Below, in pieces: positions 7,782 to 58,981 of a DNA stretch of 64,000 nt (positions within the stretch are counted from its first letter, which is position 1; each line of letters starts with the position of its first letter). Origin of the DNA: Candidatus Wolfebacteria bacterium (lineage in GTDB: Bacteria; Patescibacteriota; Minisyncoccia; UBA6257; UBA9933); NCBI GenBank assembly GCA_024654025.1, contig JANLIR010000003.1, positions 1,658 to 65,657 of the forward strand, in the 5' to 3' direction. A model generated the notes under the pieces. That model was given only the letters and a program-made list of their open reading frames with translations, was not told the origin of the DNA and made no database searches. The translations under genes and the position numbers were made by a program.

Positions 7782-8846
7782 ATGTTCTCTAAAAAACCAA
7801 AAATCGCGATAAACGGATTTGGGAGAATAGGAAGATTGTTTTTCCGACAAGCGTTTCCCGCCCGAGGCGGATCCGCCTTTGGCGGAGACGCGGAGAAATT
7901 TAATATTGTTGCCATAAATGATTTGGGAGATATTGAAAATTTAGCGTATTTATTGAAATACGATTCTGTTTACAGAATTTATGATAAAGAAGTTAAAGCC
8001 AATAGAGAAAAGGGCGTAATTTTGGTTGACGGAAAAGAAGTTAAATTTATTTCTGAAAAAGATCCAACTAAGTTGCCGTGGAAAGAATTAGAAATCGACA
8101 TAGTGGTTGAGTCGACAGGAGCGTATGAATCTTTTGAAAAATCCAAAGCGCATTTGGATGCTGGAGCCAAGAAAGTAGTTTTAACTGCTCCCGCTAAAGA
8201 CCAAGACGGCCAAATAGGAAAAACTGTTTTGGTTGGATTAAACGAAAACGAGTTGAAAACTTGCAATATAAGCTCTAACGCGTCTTGTACGACCAACGCG
8301 GCTTCGCCGGTAATCGCCATAATGTCCGAAGAGCCGGGTATTGAAAAAGCTGTTTTAAACACTATACATGCATATACCAATACGCAGACGATTGTTGATA
8401 GCCCTGTTAAGGGAAATGATTTTAGACGCGGTCGGGCCGGAGCTCAAAATATAATTCCTTCGACAACCGGAGCGGCGATAGCGGTAACGCGGGCTTTTAA
8501 AGAATTGGAAGGAAAATTTGACGGCATTGCCATAAGAGTGCCGGTTGTAACCGGATCAATTGCGGATATAACTTTTATTTCAAAAAGAAATACTTCAGCC
8601 GAGGAAATAAACGAAATTTTTAAAAAAGCGGAGAAATCAAAACGCTGGCAGGGGATTTTAAAAACAACCGAAGATCAGATTGTTTCAACGGATATCATCG
8701 GTGAGCCATACGGAGCGATTGTTGATTTAAAATTTACCAAAGTCATCGGCGGCAATTTGGTGAAAGTTTTGAGCTGGTATGATAACGAAGCCGGATATGT
8801 GGCAACTCTTATAAAACACGTTCTTAAAGCTGCGGAGAGTTTATAA
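7782..8846 (+). CDS. gap: Glyceraldehyde-3-phosphate dehydrogenase (with a 12-aa GC-rich loop insertion near the N-terminus)
   Basis: INGFGRIGR, SNASCTTNAASP active-site motif, WYDNE; insertion PARGGSAFGGDAEK between the Rossmann strand and VAINDL. Confidence 0.9.
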   Translation: MFSKKPKIAINGFGRIGRLFFRQAFPARGGSAFGGDAEKFNIVAINDLGDIENLAYLLKYDSVYRIYDKEVKANREKGVILVDGKEVKFISEKDPTKLPWKELEIDIVVESTGAYESFEKSKAHLDAGAKKVVLTAPAKDQDGQIGKTVLVGLNENELKTCNISSNASCTTNAASPVIAIMSEEPGIEKAVLNTIHAYTNTQTIVDSPVKGNDFRRGRAGAQNIIPSTTGAAIAVTRAFKELEGKFDGIAIRVPVVTGSIADITFISKRNTSAEEINEIFKKAEKSKRWQGILKTTEDQIVSTDIIGEPYGAIVDLKFTKVIGGNLVKVLSWYDNEAGYVATLIKHVLKAAESL

Positions 8847-8866
8847 TTATCAATAAGCAAATTGTT

Positions 8867-8995
8867 TCTCGCTACCGTTCGCTCGCCCAGCGAGCGTGCT
8901 CACTGGCGTTCGTCGTTCGCTCCTCCGACACTTCGGTCGGAGACCATGCCCGCTCACTCCTCAAGCCGCGCTCGAAATCAATTTTCTTATTGTAA
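8867..8995. other. GC-rich hairpin-dense intergenic segment (candidate structured RNA or leader upstream of trmD)
   Basis: about 60% GC in an AT-rich genome; hairpins cgctcg-cccag-cgagcg and ctccgac-acttcg-gtcggag; no ORF. Confidence 0.35.
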
Positions 8996-9013
8996 ATACA
9001 ATTTAAAGTATCC

Positions 9014-9667
9014 ATGAGATTTGATATTATTACGATTTTTCCTCAAATTTTTGACTCGTATTTAAACGAGTCGATTTTAAAGCGCGCGCAAGCAAAGAAA
9101 TTGATTGATATAAAAATCCATAATTTGAGGGATTTTACTTCTAATAAACATAAAAAAGTTGACGATAAGCCGTTTGGAGGCGGACCGGGAATGGTTTTAA
9201 TGGCTGAACCAATAATTAAGGCTGTAAAGAAGGCGGTAAAATCGAAAAAAACAAAGGTAATTTTGTTTTCTGCCGGAGGCAAGCAATTTGATAATAAAGC
9301 CGCTCGTGTTTTGTCTAAGTATAACCAATTGGTTTTTGTGTGTGGAAGATATGAAGGCGTAGATGAGCGGGTAAAAAAAGCGGTAAAAGATTTGGGTTTG
9401 GGCGTGGAGGAGATTTCTATTGGTCCGTACGTTTTGACGGGAGGGGAGCTTCCGGCGATGGTTTTAATTGACGCGATTTCAAGACAAATAAAAGACGTTT
9501 TGGGAAAGCAAGAATCATTGGAAGAAAAAAGATTGGGCGTTGGAGTGCCGGGTTATACTCGACCGGAAGCTTTTATTTTTCGCAAGAAAAAATATCCAAC
9601 TCCTAAAGTTCTTTTATCCGGCAACCACCAAAAAATAGAGGAGTGGCGCCGAAAAAATAAAAAGTGA
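9014..9667 (+). CDS. trmD: tRNA (guanine37-N1)-methyltransferase TrmD
   Basis: MRFDIITIFP..FGGGPGMVLM..VCGRYEGVDERV SPOUT knot motifs. Confidence 0.9.
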   Translation: MRFDIITIFPQIFDSYLNESILKRAQAKKLIDIKIHNLRDFTSNKHKKVDDKPFGGGPGMVLMAEPIIKAVKKAVKSKKTKVILFSAGGKQFDNKAARVLSKYNQLVFVCGRYEGVDERVKKAVKDLGLGVEEISIGPYVLTGGELPAMVLIDAISRQIKDVLGKQESLEEKRLGVGVPGYTRPEAFIFRKKKYPTPKVLLSGNHQKIEEWRRKNKK

Positions 9668-32913: not shown

Positions 32914-32986
32914 ATGACGTCCGCCGTCGCCAAGGCTTTGGCGGATGCTCATTTTATAGATAAATTTCTGAATAAATTTATATAAA

Positions 32987-34204
32987 ATGGCAAAGTTTAA
33001 ATACAAGGCGCGAACTAAAGAAGGGGAGCTCCAAGTCGGTTATGTGGAGTCTTTTAATAAAGAAGGCGCTACAAATATTTTAACCTCCCATAACCTTTTT
33101 ATTTTAAGCATTGAAAATGCCGAGGTTGTTACTTGGTATGAGCGGTTTTTGGAAATTTTCAAAAAAGTAAAACAGCGCGATCTGATGGTTTTTAGCCGGC
33201 AACTGTCGCTACTTATGGAATCAAAAGTCCCGCTTTTAGATTCTCTAAAAAGTTTATACGAACAAACGTCCAGTGGTTTTTTCAAGGATATTATTTACGA
33301 AGTTCAAAGAGACGTAGAGGCGGGCCTTTCTTTGTCGCAGGCCTTGGCAAAACACAATAAAGCCTTCAGTGAATTTTTTGTAAGCATAATTCGTTCCGCT
33401 GAAGTTACCGGCCAATTAGAAGAGGCGGCGCTTTTTTTGGCCGATTATATTGAAAAAGAAAGTATATGGCGTTCTAAAATAATAAACGCTTTAATTTATC
33501 CTATTTTTCTAATCGTTAGTTTTTTCGCCGTGGTTATTTTGATGGTGACGGTGGTTTTCCCGAAAATCTTGCCGGTTTTTGAAGAGATGAATGTTCAGCT
33601 TCCGATTTATACCAGAATAATTTTAGGCAGTGGAACTTTTTTGTTGAATTGGTGGTGGGCGATATTGGTGGTTATTATCCCTTTTATTTTCTTTCTTATT
33701 GATTATGCAAGAACCAAAGAAGGAAAAGTTGTTATTAACGAAACATTACTTAGAATTCCGGTACTGGGAGAGCTTTATAGAAAACTTTATGTGGCGAGAT
33801 TCGCCGAGTCGCTAAGCGTTCTTCTTAAAGGCGGAGTGCCCGTTGCTCAGTCATTGGAAATAACTTCTCATTCTATCGGGAGCTATGTTTATAGGGATTT
33901 AATCCATAAAGTTGCGGAAAAAGTCAGGGAAGGGGAGCTTTTGTCGGAAATTATGAAGAGGGAATTTTATTATTTTCCAATATTAGTGAGTCAAATGGTG
34001 GCGGTTGGGGAAAAAACCGGAAGAATAGAGGAAATCCTTTCAAAAATCGCCGTGTTTTATAACCGAGAAGTTGAGGATCTTTTAAACCGTTTGGCGGAAT
34101 TAATTCAGCCGTTTTTAATAGCCATTATAGGTATTTTTATAGCAATTTTGTTTGCTTCCGTGATGATGCCATTGTTTAATTTGATGCAGGGATTCAGGTT
34201 ATGA
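32987..34204 (+). CDS. pilC: Type IV pilus inner-membrane platform protein PilC (GspF family)
   Basis: two GspF repeats, 3 TM, 405 aa. Confidence 0.85.
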   Translation: MAKFKYKARTKEGELQVGYVESFNKEGATNILTSHNLFILSIENAEVVTWYERFLEIFKKVKQRDLMVFSRQLSLLMESKVPLLDSLKSLYEQTSSGFFKDIIYEVQRDVEAGLSLSQALAKHNKAFSEFFVSIIRSAEVTGQLEEAALFLADYIEKESIWRSKIINALIYPIFLIVSFFAVVILMVTVVFPKILPVFEEMNVQLPIYTRIILGSGTFLLNWWWAILVVIIPFIFFLIDYARTKEGKVVINETLLRIPVLGELYRKLYVARFAESLSVLLKGGVPVAQSLEITSHSIGSYVYRDLIHKVAEKVREGELLSEIMKREFYYFPILVSQMVAVGEKTGRIEEILSKIAVFYNREVEDLLNRLAELIQPFLIAIIGIFIAILFASVMMPLFNLMQGFRL

Positions 34205-35728: not shown

Positions 35729-35772
35729 GCTTATTAGTAATGGTAAATTTGCGATCTAAAAACGGAGGGTTC

Positions 35773-35906
35773 ACCCCGCACCTTTGGAGGATCGCGAAGC
35801 AATAAAAGTTTACCATTTTATTAAAAATTGATGCGCCATTTCAAATTGGAAATTGATATTATTAAGGTATCTTCGAATAAAATTAAATCCTCCAAAGGTG
35901 CGGGGT
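35773..35906. repeat. Inverted-repeat pair (18-bp perfect, ACCCCGCACCTTTGGAGG) flanking a 98-bp segment; the right arm encodes the KGAG prepilin motif of the downstream minor pilin
   Basis: 35773-35790 is the reverse complement of 35889-35906; the left arm sits inside a local palindrome (tggtaaa/tttacca, gcgatc/gatcgc). Confidence 0.75.
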
Positions 35907-36436
35907 TCACCTATTTAGAGATGCTTATTGTTATAGCGATTATTATACTGTTCGCCTCATTTATAATAACTTATAACCACGTTTCAGAGCGGCAGCTTAT
36001 TTTAGTTAAAGATCAAGCGATAATTTTAGGCGCTTTGCAGAAAGCAAAGGCCAGCGCTTTGGCTACTTTCAGCGAAGTGGGAATTTCGTGCGGATTCGGA
36101 GTTCATTTTTCAAGTTCAACAATTCCCAATCAAATTGTTATTTATAAAAATATACCGCAGACAACAAGCACGAACTCATTAGCTCTTTGTTTGGCCATGG
36201 ATCACTCTTATCAACCGACTATTTTGAGTTCGACAACGGAAATAATTTATCTGGACAAAGATATTAGGTTTAAAAGCGTTAGTTCAACCGATATATTTTT
36301 TGTACCGCCCGACCCGACAATATTTATAGACAACAGTTCTTCTACGCCGGCAAGCACAATTGAAATCGAAACAATAGACGGTTTGGCTACAAAAGCAGTG
36401 AAGGTCAGTAATTTTGGACAAATAACCATTAAATGA
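35828..36436 (+). CDS. Minor pilin/pseudopilin (GspH/FimT-like) with prepilin-type N-terminal cleavage/methylation domain
   Basis: ...SSKGAG|FTYLEMLIVIAIIILFA; the leader length depends on which start is used. Confidence 0.7.
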   Translation: MMRHFKLEIDIIKVSSNKIKSSKGAGFTYLEMLIVIAIIILFASFIITYNHVSERQLILVKDQAIILGALQKAKASALATFSEVGISCGFGVHFSSSTIPNQIVIYKNIPQTTSTNSLALCLAMDHSYQPTILSSTTEIIYLDKDIRFKSVSSTDIFFVPPDPTIFIDNSSSTPASTIEIETIDGLATKAVKVSNFGQITIK

Positions 36437-37007: not shown

Positions 37008-37646
37008 ATGAAGATTTTTTTCGACAGATTGGATAATAAAGGAGTTTCGCTTATTGAGCTGATGGTGGCGGTTTCGGTTTTTATTGTTTTAATCAGCATC
37101 GCGGTCGGTTCTTTTGTGCAATCAATGAAGACCCAAAGAATCACGCTTGCTCTAATTTCTGCCAATGACAGTATGAATTTATCAGTTGAGCAAATGGCAA
37201 GGGAAATAAGGACCGGCTATATTTTTTGCACGCGACATGTTGGCGCCGCGACTACTACTGATTTGGGTTGCGGAAATTTAGCGGATTTTTCCGGTGACTA
37301 CGAAGTTCAATTTGTAAATGCCAACGGAATTTTTGTCAGATACCGGCTGAATAACAGCACCTTCGCTTTGGAAAAAGGCGTTTTTGATTCAATTTGTCTT
37401 GGCGGGTTATTAAATTCCGACGGATTTTGTTATAGACCCATTACTGCCGACAATGTTAAGGTTGCTGGGTTTGTAGTGGAGCTTAGGCATGCGGATACAG
37501 AGCCGAATCCTTATTCGCCCCGAGTTACTTTAATAATGAGCGTTACAAGCAAAGAACCGGATGTCGAGCCGCTAAATATTTTTACTGATATAGAAACGAG
37601 CATCAGTCCGAGATGCGGACAAAATGGATGCCCGTCGGATATATAA
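37008..37646 (+). CDS. Minor pilin/pseudopilin
   Basis: ...NKG|VSLIELMVAVSVFIVLISIAVGSF. Confidence 0.7.
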   Translation: MKIFFDRLDNKGVSLIELMVAVSVFIVLISIAVGSFVQSMKTQRITLALISANDSMNLSVEQMAREIRTGYIFCTRHVGAATTTDLGCGNLADFSGDYEVQFVNANGIFVRYRLNNSTFALEKGVFDSICLGGLLNSDGFCYRPITADNVKVAGFVVELRHADTEPNPYSPRVTLIMSVTSKEPDVEPLNIFTDIETSISPRCGQNGCPSDI

Positions 37647-46500: not shown

Positions 46501-46962
46501 ATGTATCACAAAGACACCATAAAGAAAAAATCGGATTATAAAGAAAAAGTTTTGGAATTAAGAAGAGTATCAAGAGTTGTCTCCGGAGGAAAGAGATTTA
46601 GTTTTAGAGCTACTGTTGTTATAGGAAACGAAAAAGGCTCTGTTGGCGTGGGCGTTTCCAAAGGGCATGACGTTGCCCAGTCGATTGATAAAGCTAAATC
46701 AGACGCCAAAAAGAATTTAATCCATGTATCGCTAAAAGGAAGAACAATACCTCATGAAGTTGAAGCAAAATACAGCGCTGCCAGAGTGAGGATAAAGCCA
46801 GCTAGGCCCGGGCACGGACTTCGAGCCGGAGGAGCGGCTAGAAACGTTTTGCTTTTGGCCGGAGTAAAAGACGCCAGCGCTAAATTGCTGGGAACGACTA
46901 AAAACAAATTGACAAACGCATTTGCTACGCTGGAGGCGCTTAAACAAATAAAGAAAAAATAA
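46501..46962 (+). CDS. rpsE: 30S ribosomal protein S5
   Basis: RVSRVVSGGKRFSFRATVVIGN... dsRBD plus S5 C-terminal domain. Confidence 0.95.
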   Translation: MYHKDTIKKKSDYKEKVLELRRVSRVVSGGKRFSFRATVVIGNEKGSVGVGVSKGHDVAQSIDKAKSDAKKNLIHVSLKGRTIPHEVEAKYSAARVRIKPARPGHGLRAGGAARNVLLLAGVKDASAKLLGTTKNKLTNAFATLEALKQIKKK

Positions 46963-46964
46963 AT

Positions 46965-47110
46965 ATGCCCAGTATTATAACTTCGACGAATTCTCTATTA
47001 AAATTTTTGAGGATTTTAGAAAAGGCAATATTGGGCAAAAAATAAAAAACATTAATTAACCATCAATTTCGAGAATTAACTCAAAAATAGTCGAAATTGT
47101 AATACTGGGT
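46965..47110 (+). mobile_element. MITE-like element R3 (copy of R1), occupying the position where rpmD (L30) is normally found
   Basis: same TIRs; between the rpsE stop and the rplO ATG. Confidence 0.7.
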
Positions 47111-47530
47111 ATGCAACTCCATCAATTAAAAACCAAAAATAAGTTAAAAGATAAGAAAAGAGTAGGCAGAGGCGGAAAGCGGGGTACGACTTCGGGGAAA
47201 GGCCAGAAGGGCCAGAAATCCCGCGCCGGTCACAGAATACGGCCGGCTATCAGGGATTTTTTGATGAGAATTCCTAAACTTCGCGGATCTAAAAATAAGC
47301 CGACAAGCTCTAAATTTGTTCCGGTTAATTTAAATACTTTGGAAAAGAAAATAAAAGAGGCTGTAATAGACCGGCAAATTTTGATAAAATATAATATCAT
47401 TAAGGGTTCGGAAAAAAATATAATTGTTTTAGGAAGCGGCGATTTAAAGCGGGCGCTTGAAATAAAAGGACTCAAAGTTTCGCAAAGCGCTAAAAAGAAA
47501 ATAGAAGAAGCGGGAGGGAAAATAACATGA
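47111..47530 (+). CDS. rplO: 50S ribosomal protein L15
   Basis: KRVGRGGKRGTTSGKGQKGQKSRAG. Confidence 0.9.
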   Translation: MQLHQLKTKNKLKDKKRVGRGGKRGTTSGKGQKGQKSRAGHRIRPAIRDFLMRIPKLRGSKNKPTSSKFVPVNLNTLEKKIKEAVIDRQILIKYNIIKGSEKNIIVLGSGDLKRALEIKGLKVSQSAKKKIEEAGGKIT

Positions 47531-51693: not shown

Positions 51694-52155
51694 ATGACGC
51701 ATTATTTGTCTAAGGAGGGTCTCGAGGAATTAAAAGTGGAATTAAAACGGCTTAAAAAAGACGAAACTTTTGAAATTGCCGAGAGATTAAAAAAAGCTAA
51801 AGAGTTTGGCGATCTTTCGGAAAACTCCGAATATTCGGAAGCGAAAGAAGCGCAAGCCAAACTGGAGGCGCGTATGTTTGAATTGGAAGAAGTAATCAGA
51901 AACGCCGAGATAATAAAAAAATCTCCGGGTAAGAAAAGCATAGTTCATATTGGCTCAACTCTGACTGTTTCCAAAAATGGAGATGTTATAAAATATACCA
52001 TTGTCGGTTCAATGGAGGCTAAGCCTGAAGCAAAGCTTATTTCTAACGAATCGCCGTTGGGAAGGTCTTTTTTAGGTAAAAAAATCGGAGAAGTTGTGGA
52101 GACAACTTTACCTAACGGAAAAGTTTTCAAATATAAGATAATCGAAATCGAGTAA
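51694..52155 (+). CDS. greA: Transcription elongation factor GreA
   Basis: coiled-coil N-terminal domain with DLSENSEYSEAKE acidic tip; FKBP-like C-terminal domain. Confidence 0.85.
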   Translation: MTHYLSKEGLEELKVELKRLKKDETFEIAERLKKAKEFGDLSENSEYSEAKEAQAKLEARMFELEEVIRNAEIIKKSPGKKSIVHIGSTLTVSKNGDVIKYTIVGSMEAKPEAKLISNESPLGRSFLGKKIGEVVETTLPNGKVFKYKIIEIE

Positions 52156-52505
52156 GGGCTTTGTCTCTGGCGTTTCGCCGGAGTAACAAAACCTTACCCC
52201 GCCCTCTATGCATTACGCATATGTGCTAAAGTGCCAGAAAAATGAATGGTATATAGGCTATACCAATGATTTATGAAGAAGACTAGCGGAACATCAAAAA
52301 GAATGGAAATGTGATTTAATGTATTATGAAGCGTATCAAATAGAGAAAGCTGCGCGAGAACGAGAAAGAAAATTAAAGCATTATGGCAGCGCATGGAGAG
52401 CGCTCAAGAAAAGAATTATAGCTTAGAGGGCGGGGTACTCAATGTTGTAGTTAAATTTTCGTCGCTACGCACTGAACTTCGCTAGAAAATTTAAACAACA
52501 TCGGT
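52153..52505 (+). mobile_element. TIR element carrying a GIY-YIG nuclease gene: TAAGGGCTTTGTCT left flank, 14-bp IRs TACCCCGCCCTCTA/TAGAGGGCGGGGTA, right flank homologous to 37815-37871
   Basis: perfect 14-bp inverted repeats at 52195-52208 and 52424-52437 bracket the ORF; about 40 bp of each flank is shared with the element at 37644-37871. Confidence 0.65.
52208..52426 (+). pseudogene. GIY-YIG nuclease (YhbQ/UPF0213-like), interrupted by an in-frame TGA and internally shortened
   Basis: MHYAYVLKCQKNEWYIGYTNDL-TGA-RRLAEHQKEWKCDLMYYEAYQIEKAARERERKLKHYGSAWRALKKRII; GIY..YIG..R..E signature; TGA is used as stop elsewhere in this window. Confidence 0.65.
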
Positions 52506-54122
52506 ATGTTTTGGGCGGATAAAATAGCGGAGGAAATAAAAAATGAATATCGGGATAAAATCGTCCTTCAAGCGGATTCAGGACAGGCCAAAGGAGAGGC
52601 GATTATTATTCGAGATGAAAAAACCGCTTCCGGAAAAATACACGTCGGGTCTCTGAGGGGCGTTGCGATACACGGAATAATCTCTGAGGTTTTAAACGAG
52701 CAGAACATTAAAAATAAATTTCTTTATGAGATAAATGATTTTGATGTTATGGACGGATTGCCGGTTTATTTAGATAGGGAAACTTTTTTGCCTCATATGG
52801 GCAAACCGCTTTGCAATGTTCCTTCTCCAGACGGGAAAGCCAAAAATTACGCGGAGTATTTCGGGCAAGAATTTATTAAAATTATCGAGTCGCTCGGGTT
52901 TAAACCGGAATTTTATCGTTCCAGTGATTTATATAAAACCGGGGAATTCAACGAAGCCATAAAAACTGCTTTGGAAAATGCCGATAAAATCAGGGAAATT
53001 TATAAAAAAATTTCCGGAGCTGACAAGGAAAAAGGCTGGCTTCCGATAAGTATGGTTTGCCAAAACTGCGGGAAAATCGGCACAACTAAAGCGATTTCTT
53101 TTGATGATAAGGAAGTAGAGTATATTTGCGAGGAAAATTATGTTGAGTGGGCAAAGGGTTGCGGCTACCGAGGGAAAATTTCTCCTTTTGACGGCAACGC
53201 CAAGCTTCCTTGGAAAGTGGAGTGGGCCGCAAAATTTTCGGTTTTAGACGTTAGTGTGGAGGGCGCCGGGAAAGATCATTCAACAAAAGGCGGCGCAAGA
53301 GAGGTGGCTGATACTATCAGCAGAGAAGTGTTTAAAAGAAAACCTCCTTTTGATATTAAATACGAATTTTTTCAGGTTGGCGGAAAAAAAATGTCTTCGT
53401 CAAAAGGAGCGGGTTCGTCGGCAAAAGAAATCGCAGATTCGCTCCCGCCGGAAATTTTCAGATTTTTACTTTTATACAAAGAGCCGCGCCAAGTCATAGA
53501 TTTTATTCCGGACGGCGACACGATTCCGATTCTTTATGACAATTACGATAAAATGGCCGAAGATTATTTTACGGATAGAAAAGGAGATTATAAACGGATT
53601 TTTTATTTGAGCCATACGCCTCAGCAGCGTGCAGAAATCATAAAAAGATTTTTGCCGAGATTTTCACAAATTGCTTTTTTGGCGCAGATGCCGCATATCA
53701 ATATCAGCCAAGAGGTTGAGAAAATTAAAGCTGGAAAATTATCCGACGAAGATGAAAGCGAGGTTGAGTACAGGACCAGATATGCCTTAAAATGGCTTTC
53801 TGTTTACGCGCCGGAGGATTATAAGTTTGAGCTCCAAACAAAGGAAATTCCTTTGAAAGCAAAAGAGTTGGGCGAAAAGCAAAAACAAGCTTTGAAAATA
53901 ATTTTGGATTACGTCAGTTCAAAAGATGTTTTGGACGGACAAGAGCTGCACAGCAAGCTTCACGAAATTAAAAGTGATTTAAAAATCGAACCGAAAGAAC
54001 TTTTCAGCGCTATTTATTTAAGTTTTTTAGGTAAAGTTAGCGGGCCCAAGGCAGGATGGTTTTTGAGCGTTTTAGATAAAAAGTTTTTAGAAAAGCGGCT
54101 AAACGAGGTAGTTAGTAGTTAG
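52506..54122 (+). CDS. lysK: Lysyl-tRNA synthetase, class I (archaeal-type LysK)
   Basis: HIGH-like KIHVGSLRG and KMSKS-like KMSSSKG class I motifs; length and domain order of class I LysRS. Confidence 0.8.
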   Translation: MFWADKIAEEIKNEYRDKIVLQADSGQAKGEAIIIRDEKTASGKIHVGSLRGVAIHGIISEVLNEQNIKNKFLYEINDFDVMDGLPVYLDRETFLPHMGKPLCNVPSPDGKAKNYAEYFGQEFIKIIESLGFKPEFYRSSDLYKTGEFNEAIKTALENADKIREIYKKISGADKEKGWLPISMVCQNCGKIGTTKAISFDDKEVEYICEENYVEWAKGCGYRGKISPFDGNAKLPWKVEWAAKFSVLDVSVEGAGKDHSTKGGAREVADTISREVFKRKPPFDIKYEFFQVGGKKMSSSKGAGSSAKEIADSLPPEIFRFLLLYKEPRQVIDFIPDGDTIPILYDNYDKMAEDYFTDRKGDYKRIFYLSHTPQQRAEIIKRFLPRFSQIAFLAQMPHINISQEVEKIKAGKLSDEDESEVEYRTRYALKWLSVYAPEDYKFELQTKEIPLKAKELGEKQKQALKIILDYVSSKDVLDGQELHSKLHEIKSDLKIEPKELFSAIYLSFLGKVSGPKAGWFLSVLDKKFLEKRLNEVVSS

Positions 54123-57166: not shown

Positions 57167-58981
57167 ATGACTTCAGAAGAACTGCGAAAATCATTTTTAG
57201 ATTTTTTTAAATCAAAAGGGCATGCGATTGTTTTGTCTTCATCTTTAATACCAGATGATCCGTCTGTGCTGCTTACAACCGCCGGAATGCAGCAATTTAA
57301 AAAATATTACACCGGCGAGCTTAACGCGATGAGCGATTTTAAATCTCAAAGAACCGCCTCAGTCCAAAAGAGTTTTCGGACCAGCGACATTGAAGAGGTT
57401 GGCGATAAAACGCACCTAACTTTTTTTGAGATGCTTGGCAATTTTTCTTTCGGCCCTGTGGGAAGCGACAAGCCGGACGATTTGGAAACGGACGGTTATT
57501 TTAAAAGGTCATCTATTCATTGGGCGTACGAATACATTACTAAAGTGCTGGAGATTGGATTAGACAGAATTTACGTGACTGTTTTTGAGGGTAACGATGA
57601 AGTTCCTTTTGACGAGGAGTCGTATAAGATTTGGCATGAGGAAATTAAAATGACGAAGGAAAAAATTCTAATGGGTAACCGCGCGGATAATTTTTGGGGG
57701 CCGACTGGAGATTCGGGCCCGTGCGGGCCAACAACGGAAATCTATGTGGACGGAGTTGAGGTTTGGAACGTTGTTTTTAACGAATATTTCCAAGAAAAAG
57801 GCGGAAAGTTGAGAAAAGTTGAAAATCCGGGTGTTGATACTGGAATGGGCTTTGAAAGGCTGCTGTCGGTTTTGCAGGCAAAGGAAAGTGTTTTTGAAAC
57901 CGATGTTTTTGAGGGCTTTGTTTCTAAAATAAAAGAATTGGCGCCTTCTTTAGCGGACAAAGAAAATGGCAAAGAAAATATTGTCCGGATTTTTGCCGAC
58001 CATTTAAGAGGGGCGATATTTTTGACAGCTGACGGCATAAGGCCGTCGAACAAAGAGGCGGGATACGTTTTGAGGCGGTTGATACGCCGATTATTGGCTT
58101 ATGAAGTCAAATATGACATTCACGCTAATTTTTTTTCCGAGGCGATAAAAATTATTAAAAATAAATTTGCCGAAGTTTACCCGGAGTTAAATAACGATAA
58201 AATTATTCTGGATGTTTTGGAAGGTGAACGAACAAAATATCAGGAAGCAATAGGTTTGGGCGCTAAGGAAATAGAAAAGCTTAACGCTCTGGGCGAAAAG
58301 ATTACCGGAGTCGTAGCGTTTAATTTATATCAAACTTTTAGCATTTCGCCGGAAATTACGTTGGAATTGGCGAAAAACGTTGATAAGGATAATTTTCAAA
58401 AAGAATTTGATGAAGAAACTAAAAAGCATCAGGAAATTTCCCGCGCCGGAGTTGAGAAAAAATTCGGCGGTCACGGTTTAATTTTAGACACTGGAGAGCT
58501 TAAAGCGGGAAGCGAGGAAGAAATGAATAAAGTTATCCGTTTGCATACCGCCACTCATTTGCTTCATCAGGCGCTCAGAGATGTTTTGGGCGATGGCGTT
58601 GACCAGCGCGGCAGCGATATTAATCCCGAGCGGGCGCGATTTGATTTTCTTTTTAACAGAAAACTTACGGCTGATGAGATTAAAAAAGTTGAGGAAATCG
58701 TGAATGAGAAAATAAACCAAAAATTGCCGGTTCGTTTTAAAGAAATGCCGAAAGAAGACGCGGAAAAAACCGGAGCTCGCAAATTTTTTAAAGGTAATTA
58801 CCCGCTAATTGTGAAAGTATATTATATTGGCCAGGAAGACGATATTTTGAAAGCGTATTCCAAAGAGTTTTGCGGCGGGCCTCACGTAGAAAATATTTTT
58901 GAGATAGGGAAATTTAAAATTATTAAAGAAGAGGCGAGTTCGGCTGGAGTCCGCCGGATAAGAGCAACAATCAGCGAATAA
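57167..58981 (+). CDS. alaS: Alanyl-tRNA synthetase, short form (catalytic, tRNA-recognition and editing domains; no C-Ala domain)
   Basis: N-terminal class II core TSEELRKSFLDFFKSKGHAIV..LLTTAGMQQF; editing-site HxxxH...CGGPH; only 604 aa. Confidence 0.8.
   Translation: MTSEELRKSFLDFFKSKGHAIVLSSSLIPDDPSVLLTTAGMQQFKKYYTGELNAMSDFKSQRTASVQKSFRTSDIEEVGDKTHLTFFEMLGNFSFGPVGSDKPDDLETDGYFKRSSIHWAYEYITKVLEIGLDRIYVTVFEGNDEVPFDEESYKIWHEEIKMTKEKILMGNRADNFWGPTGDSGPCGPTTEIYVDGVEVWNVVFNEYFQEKGGKLRKVENPGVDTGMGFERLLSVLQAKESVFETDVFEGFVSKIKELAPSLADKENGKENIVRIFADHLRGAIFLTADGIRPSNKEAGYVLRRLIRRLLAYEVKYDIHANFFSEAIKIIKNKFAEVYPELNNDKIILDVLEGERTKYQEAIGLGAKEIEKLNALGEKITGVVAFNLYQTFSISPEITLELAKNVDKDNFQKEFDEETKKHQEISRAGVEKKFGGHGLILDTGELKAGSEEEMNKVIRLHTATHLLHQALRDVLGDGVDQRGSDINPERARFDFLFNRKLTADEIKKVEEIVNEKINQKLPVRFKEMPKEDAEKTGARKFFKGNYPLIVKVYYIGQEDDILKAYSKEFCGGPHVENIFEIGKFKIIKEEASSAGVRRIRATISE

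Follow-up and report, generated by a model that had tools for sequence, protein, structure and literature searches.

The spacer between greA and lysS on a contig of Candidatus Wolfebacteria bacterium (GenBank assembly GCA_024654025.1, contig JANLIR010000003.1), analysed here within a stretch of 64,000 nucleotides (positions 1,658 to 65,657 of the forward strand, hereafter the window, numbered from its first letter), is best read as a nested composite, in which a three-hairpin intercistronic module (P1-P2-P3) holds a selfish GIY-YIG hairpin cassette in its P2 slot. We put the probability of this reading at about two in three. In the minimum free energy (MFE) fold, the spacer is wholly filled by P1, by the cassette as the middle hairpin P2, and by P3. 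The features of the region are the following:

51694-52155, forward strand: greA, from the list of open reading frames (ORFs), with Pfam GreA_GreB_N and GreA_GreB found on an identical product
52153-52196, forward strand: hairpin P1 of the intercistronic module, from the MFE fold
52195-52208, forward strand: left-hand inverted repeat TACCCCGCCCTCTA bounding the GIY-YIG cassette and ending on the A of the ATG
52208-52426, forward strand: GIY-YIG nuclease pseudogene, 72 codons, 219 nt, from its translation, Pfam match and homologues
52424-52437, forward strand: right terminal inverted repeat, TAGAGGGCGGGGTA, from the sequence, of a repeat type that recurs in relatives
52437-52505, forward strand: hairpin P3 of the module, ending directly at the lysS ATG
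52506-54122, forward strand: lysS, class I lysyl-tRNA synthetase gene (Pfam tRNA-synt_1f, E 1.7e-88)

The TAA stop of greA (52153-52155) is both the opening of TAAGGGCTTTGTCT and the first three bases of P1, the outer stem of which is here TAAGG..TTTGT / ACAAA..CCTTA, with a variable apical stem CTGGCG/CGCCGG. P2 is a GC-rich hairpin closed by ACCC...GGGT, and the cassette that occupies it measures 243 bp. TACCCCGCCCTCTA and TAGAGGGCGGGGTA form a perfect inverted repeat of 14 bp, as the first-pass annotation of this DNA had described around a 219-nt GIY-YIG frame, and both sequence and translation confirm it; the start and stop codons of the cassette are buried in this perfect 13-14 bp terminal repeat. 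P3 is made of an outer stem CTCAATGTTGT / ACAACATCGG and an inner stem TTAAATTTT / AAAATTTAA, and the lysS start codon adjoins it without a Shine-Dalgarno sequence. The same annotation had taken TAAGGGCTTTGTCT at the greA TAA for the start of the element: its position was correct, but not its role, the flanks being P1 and P3 of a separate module. No family of Rfam 15, including group I/II introns, LOOT and, as far as that release contains it, the COG2827 motif, matched the element at E up to 10, only sub-threshold noise of the miRNA-like hairpin type being obtained, and a group I/II intron or another known RNA family was rejected for want of any match. A promoter or terminator inside the module was likewise rejected, since neither intrinsic terminators nor sigma-70 promoters were found there on the plus (gene) strand and the counts did not exceed those of shuffled sequences.

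The gene carried by the cassette belongs to the GIY-YIG nuclease superfamily. The frame 52208-52426 translates as MHYAYVLKCQKNEWYIGYTNDL, a stop, RRLAEHQKEWKCDLMYYEAYQIEKAARERERKLKHYGSAWRALKKRIIA and a final stop, the stretch after the TGA running from RRLAEHQ to ...REKKLKHYGSAWRALKKRIIA. When the TGA is read through, as the first-pass annotation had proposed to do, the product matches Pfam GIY-YIG (PF01541) with 32.1 bits and E 1.5e-7 (cut-off 22.6). A homologue search among 5.8 billion proteins returned 92 relatives, mostly intact and of ~72 aa, the best of which are 81-83% identical over the full length. The catalytic-type residues Y5, Y15, G17, R25, H29, E41 and E53 are invariant or nearly so among them, a basic C-terminal helix, LKHYGSAWRALKKRI, is also conserved, and the position of the TGA is filled by K, R, P, G, Q or E. 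The intact homologue P0001 is predicted to fold as beta-beta-alpha-beta-alpha-alpha (pLDDT 92.6), and its closest solved structures in Foldseek are the UPF0213 proteins 1zg2 and 1ywl and the Slx1 chain 6seh_C (TM 0.66). The family profile matches 1zg2 with E 2.8e-8, and it aligns with 1zg2 and 1ywl through its residues 2-34 only. NCBIfam holds no specific family for the nuclease, and no transposase of a known class (DDE, HUH, serine, tyrosine, Cas1) is present in the cassette, where the one ORF encodes nothing but a GIY-YIG domain of 72 aa.

The G..ST..RRP segment of YhbQ-type proteins (GKGAKYT..RRP) is missing from all type I proteins and kept in the type II relatives, so that similarity to UPF0213/YhbQ does not extend over the full length. 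Its absence from the window gene had been taken as a sign of decay. Since all 92 homologues (best 83%) lack it, a length of ~72 aa is a feature of the subfamily and not the remnant of a longer GIY-YIG gene, a candidate that was therefore rejected; an intact member also folds confidently. The nucleases found in mRNA modules (L052, L076, L053 and L057, the L numbers being our labels for loci) are short, 72-76 aa, in at least three clades, and clade-mates in rRNA, tRNA, RNase P or ORF contexts (L072, L069, L058) have 80-90 aa with the central segment kept.

The window copy became a pseudogene recently, by a CGA to TGA change at 52274-52276, in frame; its TAG stop (52424-52426) lies inside the right repeat. 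Among 54 ORFs of at least 150 aa in the genome, 40 end with TAA, 8 with TAG and 6 with TGA. Recoding of TGA, already judged improbable in the first-pass annotation, was rejected because TGA ends 6 of these 54 long ORFs and because sister strains have CGA at that codon. These strains (L001-L003, with an identical GreA, three independent assemblies of the same population) carry the same cassette with other lesions, namely a GAA codon turned into TAA and the loss of 1 nt within the YIGYT codons; the contigs with identical GreA originate from Hainich groundwater, and among named organisms the nearest GreA proteins belong to Candidatus Wolfebacteria (Patescibacteria). The TGA is thus a true nonsense codon and the lesions differ, therefore sister lineages lost the gene by separate mutations, as expected of a selfish nuclease gene in its end-phase and in agreement with the recently inactivated selfish gene that had been proposed.

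The 243-bp hairpin cassette is a discrete mobile unit, and its relatives carry target duplications. A scan of one genome per species yielded 456 loci encoding relatives, 80 of which were fetched for analysis. In these 80 loci a perfect 12-27 bp repeat beginning CCCC or CCCA almost always wraps the ORF, and the start and stop codons of the ORF lie within the repeat arms. The repeat type of the window, (A)CCCCGCCC[TC]CTA, wraps the ORF in ~40 genome loci, and nuclease clades track repeat types across differing contexts. That the repeats bound a discrete unit, as had been supposed, is supported by relatives which interrupt ORFs and RNA genes with short target duplications, and the intact copies to be sought in related genomes are indeed present. 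The host sites identified are:

Lcl_C-domain gene (L056): duplication GAAC
ORF6N gene with two insertions (L060): duplications TAGA and TAA
tRNA-Ala, 5' end (L055, L067, L074, L077): 8-9 bp duplication, the genes being called tRNA-Ala by ARAGORN
23S rRNA (L069, L072, L073): cassette lying within the extent of the Rfam LSU match
16S rRNA (L058): one mini hairpin enclosed by the SSU match, whose 3' end carries a full cassette
RNase P RNA (L071, L075), immediately 5' of AGGAAAGUCC: overlap between cassette and Rfam RNase P match in L075 only

When the cassette and one duplicate were removed in silico, a full ORF6N domain came back (E 4.5e-31) and the C-terminus of the Lcl_C domain was restored. 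The insertions of L069 and L072/L073 lie at what we take, by eye against the E. coli 23S rRNA, to be helix 25 and helix 45. The cassettes are selfish units placed at hairpin positions of host RNAs, which sometimes land in ORFs. Among type I cassettes, the upstream ORF is co-oriented in 25/38 and the downstream ORF in 30/38, an antisense-only neighbour being found in none, and their generic flanks fold moderately (median z of -2.1 for the left flank and -1.5 for the right one, n=12).

Several other arrangements were observed around these loci. Two tandem cassettes, each flanked by GCCAGTAGT, stand at the 5' end of tRNA-Ala in L077 (1832-2426), and in L173 and L195 one hairpin is nested within another that has the same type of repeat (CCCTGTTAAAT). 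In L058 (939-1158), the GIY-YIG cassette near the 16S 3' end is directly followed by a group I intron (Rfam, 56.7 bits), and a free-standing gene of the 23S_rRNA_IVP family is found near an intact cassette in L213 (2127-2504). Many type I cassettes are located just upstream of mraZ-like starts (MFIGEY...; L010, L013, L018, L027, L032, L034, L037, L038, L042), beside clusters of TGTGGATAA (DnaA-box-like) motifs.

The module that receives the cassette at greA-lysS is common in Patescibacteria, where it is read on the mRNA strand and always co-oriented with its genes. The search pattern AGGGCTTTGT-N15-45-ACAAAACCTT gave at least 120 metagenome matches; 129 instances were examined, of which ~10 are chance matches inside genes and ~120 are genuine. 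The position of the module is fixed between a stop and a start codon: a stop (TAA, TGA or TAG) abuts AGGGC in 120/129 instances, behind an open frame with a median of 132 codons, and the ATG of a downstream ORF follows P2 by at most 135 nt in 92/108 (median 62 nt), usually preceded by ATTGGC and not by a Shine-Dalgarno sequence. A P2 hairpin follows P1 in 108 instances and is directly adjacent, without linker, in 89 of these. The 19 instances where no P2 repeat was detected correspond to chance in-gene matches, truncated contigs or weak P2 stems, and no slot-less (P2-free) module was found among the 129.

P3 is conserved and covaries. Over 40 sequences, 96% of the cells are paired and 15 of the 18 pairs change on both sides; none of 500 shuffles did as well and slid controls pair at 29-57%. 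The variable interiors of P1 fold at a median z of -4.7, with 95% below -2, and compensatory variants of the P1 outer stem occur in L028, L029 and L214. A covariance model of P3 (R1) scores 75.7 bits on the P3 of greA-lysS and 77.9 bits on that of a second module copy in the window (element B, below), both having been in its training alignment, and it finds P3 beside 13 genome cassettes. The two closest intact homologues of the nuclease sit in the same kind of module, between dnaB and recR and between an RNaseH-like gene and RNase_H_2, and the terminus classes of P2 are the repeat classes of the cassettes. Rfam 15 gave no meaningful match to compact modules, and the literature searches found no description of the module or of the cassette architecture.

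The occupants of the P2 slot are of various sizes: 60/108 measure 90-119 nt, 26/108 measure 20-49 nt and 3/108 reach cassette size (at least 240 nt). Their interiors are unrelated in sequence (97/111 hairpins are singletons), and P2 hairpins as a recently amplified miniature-element family were rejected for the interiors on the basis of these 97 singletons. In the metagenome modules (L093-L212), where the P2 lengths have a sharp mode at 90-119 nt, the interiors are A-rich (40% A) and unstructured, with a median z of ~0, hence a structured interior of the ~100-nt hairpins was rejected. Within P3, the 5' strand (GCTCAATG...) has a complementary mimic in the loop (...CATTGAGC...), as seen in alignment A4 and in metagenome P3 sequences. 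The longest helix of this alternative pairing has 7.2 bp vs 5.0 in shuffles (p 7e-8), an enrichment that may point to a switch between two states. A foldback of long terminal repeats, in which P1 would pair with P3 at long range, was rejected since P1 resembles the reverse complement of its own P3 no more than those of the P3 hairpins of other copies.

At greA-lysS itself, the occupant of the slot turns over between close strains. In relatives whose GreA is 95% identical, P1 and P3 are retained at ~88-90% identity (own count), and the P2 slot is occupied by ACCCAGCACC hairpins that carry no gene and measure 72 or 108 nt; the longer of the two has an interior homologous to that of element B of the window, and a further small hairpin is nested in P1. 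In relatives of 88%, 86% and 71% GreA identity, the module is absent from greA-lysS and the spacers measure 26, 117 and 72 nt, so that the cassette-free junctions sought after greA do exist. The locus displays both the same-site presence/absence polymorphism and the degeneration that characterize homing genes. In L086 (3209-3290), compared with L085, the same greA and module are followed by the gene of ribosomal protein L25 instead of lysS, with the junction of the rearrangement at the 3' end of P3.

The window contains other elements of this kind:

37644-37877, forward strand: element B, second module copy, beginning with the TAA of a pilin-like gene and reaching the ATG at 37872 (P1 37644-37704; central hairpin 37704-37813; P3 37814-37877)
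35774-35905, forward strand: element C, stand-alone gene-less hairpin of the CCCCGCACC subfamily, with arms of 19-20 bp, ACCCCGCACCTTTGGAGGAT
32914-32989, forward strand: element D, reduced module with a GC-rich P2-like hairpin TCCGCC...GGCGGA and P3, and no P1

The flank blocks AACAAAACCTTACCCCGC, GCGGGGTRCTCAnnnTTGTAGTnAAATTTT and TAAGGGCTTTGTCT occur at exactly two window sites, greA-lysS and 37644-37871, for ~0 to 0.5 matches expected from shuffles. A third full copy at 57910 was rejected, as a 2-mismatch match to TAAGGGCTTTGTCT inside a coding region with no other part of the element. The sharing of ~40-nt flanks between the two sites, pointed out in the first-pass annotation, is thus real, but these flanks are not the ends of a cassette element, and the stretch 37644-37871 is not a miniature of the cassette since its central hairpin, gene-less and 110 nt long, belongs to another repeat subfamily (CCCCGCACC). 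Full members of the subfamily of this P2 (ACCCCGCACCTTTTGG...) encode nucleases of ~86-89 aa. Element B folds with a z of -7.6 and its upstream gene matches N_methyl. Element C interrupts the codons for the leader peptide of a pilin-like gene and is bordered by a duplication of TTCA (35770-35773 and 35906-35909), and removal of the element with one TTCA restores MVNLRSKNGG followed by FTYLEMLIVIAII...; this host gene matches N_methyl only weakly (E 0.0037 and 17.2 bits, for a cut-off of 21.2). Inside the element, an in-frame ATG (35831) gives a new leader ending ...KGAG/FTYLEM, by which the prepilin cleavage motif is kept, so the pilin-like gene may still work. As miniature elements, B and C have inverted repeats and no ORF; near-identical copies were not seen (97/111 P2 hairpins are singletons). 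Element D lies between two pilus-assembly-type genes, its P3-like hairpin contains the ATG (32987) in the 3' strand, and R1 matches it at 32942-32994 with 37.6 bits (E 5e-6). Another repeated hairpin, of ~145 nt, is present at 43180-43276, 44243-44405 and 46962-47111, one copy being truncated; bounded by the arms CCCAGTATTAYAACTTCGAC...GTCGAAATTGTAATACTGGG, it starts in the manner of CCCAG-type cassette termini and ends with GGGT directly before ATG starts. A 167-nt spacer (8846-9014) is full of GCTCACTnnCGTTCGC-like repeats and resembles the short flanks (GAGCGAAGCGAA ... GCTCAnnnnnTTCGC-ATG) found around many type I cassettes elsewhere.

Several hypotheses could account for these data. The element could be a single transposon running from TAAGGGCTTTGTCT to ...AAATTTAAACAA, with the GIY-YIG gene for its mobility and 37644-37871 as a miniature, non-autonomous derivative. 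Flanks exactly common to both window copies, the absence of the entire module at 88%, 86% and 71% GreA identity, which points to gain or loss as a block, and the joining of the same module to another downstream gene in L086 are in agreement with it. We nevertheless hold it to be improbable, because the central hairpins of the two copies come from different repeat subfamilies, close relatives keep P1 and P3 around other hairpins at greA-lysS, and cassettes lacking P1 and P3 are found in ORFs and in genes for tRNA, RNase P and rRNA, where duplications immediately flank the inverted repeat. Moreover, only 3/108 modules have a P2 of full-cassette size (at least 240 nt), P1 compared with its own P3 reverse complement shows no long terminal repeats, and copies within one genome differ by compensatory changes, unlike the products of recent transposition. 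A structure acting in DNA only, where single-stranded or cruciform hairpins would serve recombination or replication like attC, the IS200/IS605 ends or REP, with the GIY-YIG protein as a recombination nuclease and no role in RNA, would fit the perfect palindromes, the frequent GCGAAGC-type loops of P1, the lack of a clear excess of G-U over A-C, and the fact that the closest solved fold of known function is that of Slx1, a branched-DNA nuclease. Such a structure would have no need for the absolute co-orientation with flanking genes or for ends anchored on stop and start codons, and the fact that relatives sit precisely at those helix positions of rRNA and RNase P RNA where insertions are tolerated speaks for selection acting on the transcript; this explanation seems to us very improbable.

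It is unlikely, to a lesser degree than these two, that the operons of Patescibacteria natively possess P1-P2-P3 as a cis-acting RNA, serving for example in processing or in the coupling of translation, in which P2 is a helix of its own and the GIY-YIG ORF a passenger homing gene that invaded the P2 loop, as in the peripheral loops of group I introns; gene-less P2 hairpins would then be ancestral rather than decayed, and the hairpin with its ORF would have become portable secondarily. Every genuine module has a P2, down to GC hairpins of 20-22 nt with tetraloops, the P2 interiors are unrelated, the constraint from stop to start is strong, P3 covaries and the alternative pairing inside P3 is conserved (7.2 vs 5.0, p 7e-8), all of which such an RNA would explain. 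Against it, the P2 termini (CCCCGCC, CCCAGCAC, CCGAGCAC, CCCCCTC) belong to the same classes as the repeats that bound nuclease cassettes within ORFs, tRNA and rRNA, the ~100-nt type I hairpins retain the cassette ends ...CTCTATGC and GCTTAGAG..., hairpin-in-hairpin copies are nested in L173 and L195, and the function of the module is only putative. Some observations do weigh against the nested composite that we prefer. Since all true copies of the module have a P2, P2 may be native to it and not derived from cassettes, and a sharp length mode with unrelated interiors is not predicted by simple cassette decay. The greA-lysS cassette has no target duplication of its own (CTTA vs TACT), the duplications of the relatives, 3-9 bp, match no single known cutting geometry, and the 26-nt cassette-free spacer of L088 keeps TAAGGGC, so that it may be a deletion scar and not a virgin site. 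The counts of G-U vs A-C (11 vs 7 in P3, 131 vs 83 in P2) do not tell selection on the RNA strand from selection on a DNA palindrome, and the mechanism proposed below is inferred.

For the nested composite, we propose that the intact nuclease would cut cognate hairpin or cruciform sites, promoting the copying of the cassette into slots with matching termini in a homing-like manner, with an occasional ectopic insertion at staggered breaks that would leave short duplications. Copying triggered by the nuclease is favored, since Slx1 cuts DNA structures and a cruciform can be extruded from a perfect palindrome. At the level of the transcript, the stem, long and perfect, would loop the cassette out of the host RNA and keep translation of the nuclease low; the start and stop codons being paired in a GC-rich stem with no ribosome-binding site, expression should be low and dependent on read-through from the host operon. 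RNase III may plausibly cut the P2 stem, as in rRNA intervening sequences. P1 and P3 would insulate the flanking cistrons as 3' and 5' stabilising hairpins, protecting both halves of the mRNA, and would allow a Shine-Dalgarno-independent restart at the AUG that abuts a helix. Because the stem makes the insertion a mere extension of a hairpin, this would explain the survival of relatives in the P2 slot and at the tips of rRNA and RNase P RNA helices. A broader proposal, which is tentative and rather doubtful at present, is that the cassettes form an unclassified class of prokaryotic mobile elements, whose sole gene is an Slx1-like nuclease of 72-90 aa acting on the hairpin or cruciform of its own repeats, the operon module of Patescibacteria being the docking slot that keeps the flanking genes expressed.

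The genomes of Patescibacteria are tiny and nearly devoid of spacer DNA, but many insertions are tolerated in their essential RNAs. If the above is true, cassettes built as perfect hairpins sit where the extension of a hairpin is harmless, and operon mRNAs offer a standard slot between two conserved hairpins, from stop codon to start codon. It would also link the non-intron GIY-YIG insertions of rRNA genes, the classical rRNA intervening sequences and the palindromic miniature elements that have no known mobilising enzyme, and define an abundant structured RNA module, new to Rfam 15 and to the literature searched. The module is directly testable with reporters, and these smallest GIY-YIG enzymes by biochemistry. 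The result at the level of the family is of greater interest than the window copy, that is, the hairpin-cassette architecture of minimal GIY-YIG genes across many RNA hosts, plus the slot module.

Among known systems, non-intron insertions with GIY-YIG ORFs have been described in rRNA genes of bacteria of the Candidate Phyla Radiation (CPR) by Tsurumaki et al. 2024 (PMC11270868), following an earlier study (its reference 2). These insertions share with the cassettes a small GIY-YIG ORF, the same radiation, the absence of a group I/II intron and scattered stem-loop positions; L058, L069, L072 and L073 are cases of this kind. In that article the ORFs are reported only from rRNA genes and considered outside a homing context, and inverted repeats or hairpins are not mentioned in its searched text, whereas the window cassette is in an mRNA module and relatives are also found in tRNA-Ala, in RNase P RNA and in protein genes with duplications. 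The intervening sequences of 23S rRNA (Salmonella, Leptospira, Coxiella), located at helix 25/45 and excised by RNase III (background partly from PMC11270868), are similar in that their ends pair into a long stem replacing the tip of a hairpin of the host RNA, sometimes with an ORF, and they are tolerated since they are looped or cut out. In contrast, the host RNA is here an operon mRNA and the ORF a GIY-YIG gene, not the four-helix 23S_rRNA_IVP protein. The window copy, sitting in an mRNA spacer, is therefore not an rRNA intervening sequence, and only its relatives are in rRNA genes.

Like the homing genes I-TevI and T4 Seg, the cassette gene has a GIY-YIG catalytic domain, is polymorphic for presence at one site and has degenerated separately in sister lineages; unlike these, it has no DNA-binding domain (72 aa in all) and no intron (Rfam), and unlike classical homing, the gene is wrapped in a perfect inverted repeat and has ectopic copies with target duplications. 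The closest sequences and folds are those of Slx1 and UPF0213 (YhbQ, COG2827), from which the cassette subfamily differs by the loss of the central G..ST..RRP and by having neither RING nor partner domain. As in insertion sequences, terminal inverted repeats lie at the boundaries, of 14 bp here and 12-27 bp in relatives. The cassettes can also be likened to REP/REPIN-RAYT and to the palindromic Correia, ERIC, BOX and Rickettsia elements, with a nuclease gene between inverted hairpin repeats and many gene-less palindromic copies in transcribed intergenic DNA, and element C, in frame within a gene, to the Rickettsia palindromic elements. They differ from these systems in that the enzyme is of the GIY-YIG and not of the HUH-Y1 type, that copies of one family are not near-identical (97 singletons), and that they occupy a defined slot, in a conserved three-hairpin module anchored on stop and start codons.

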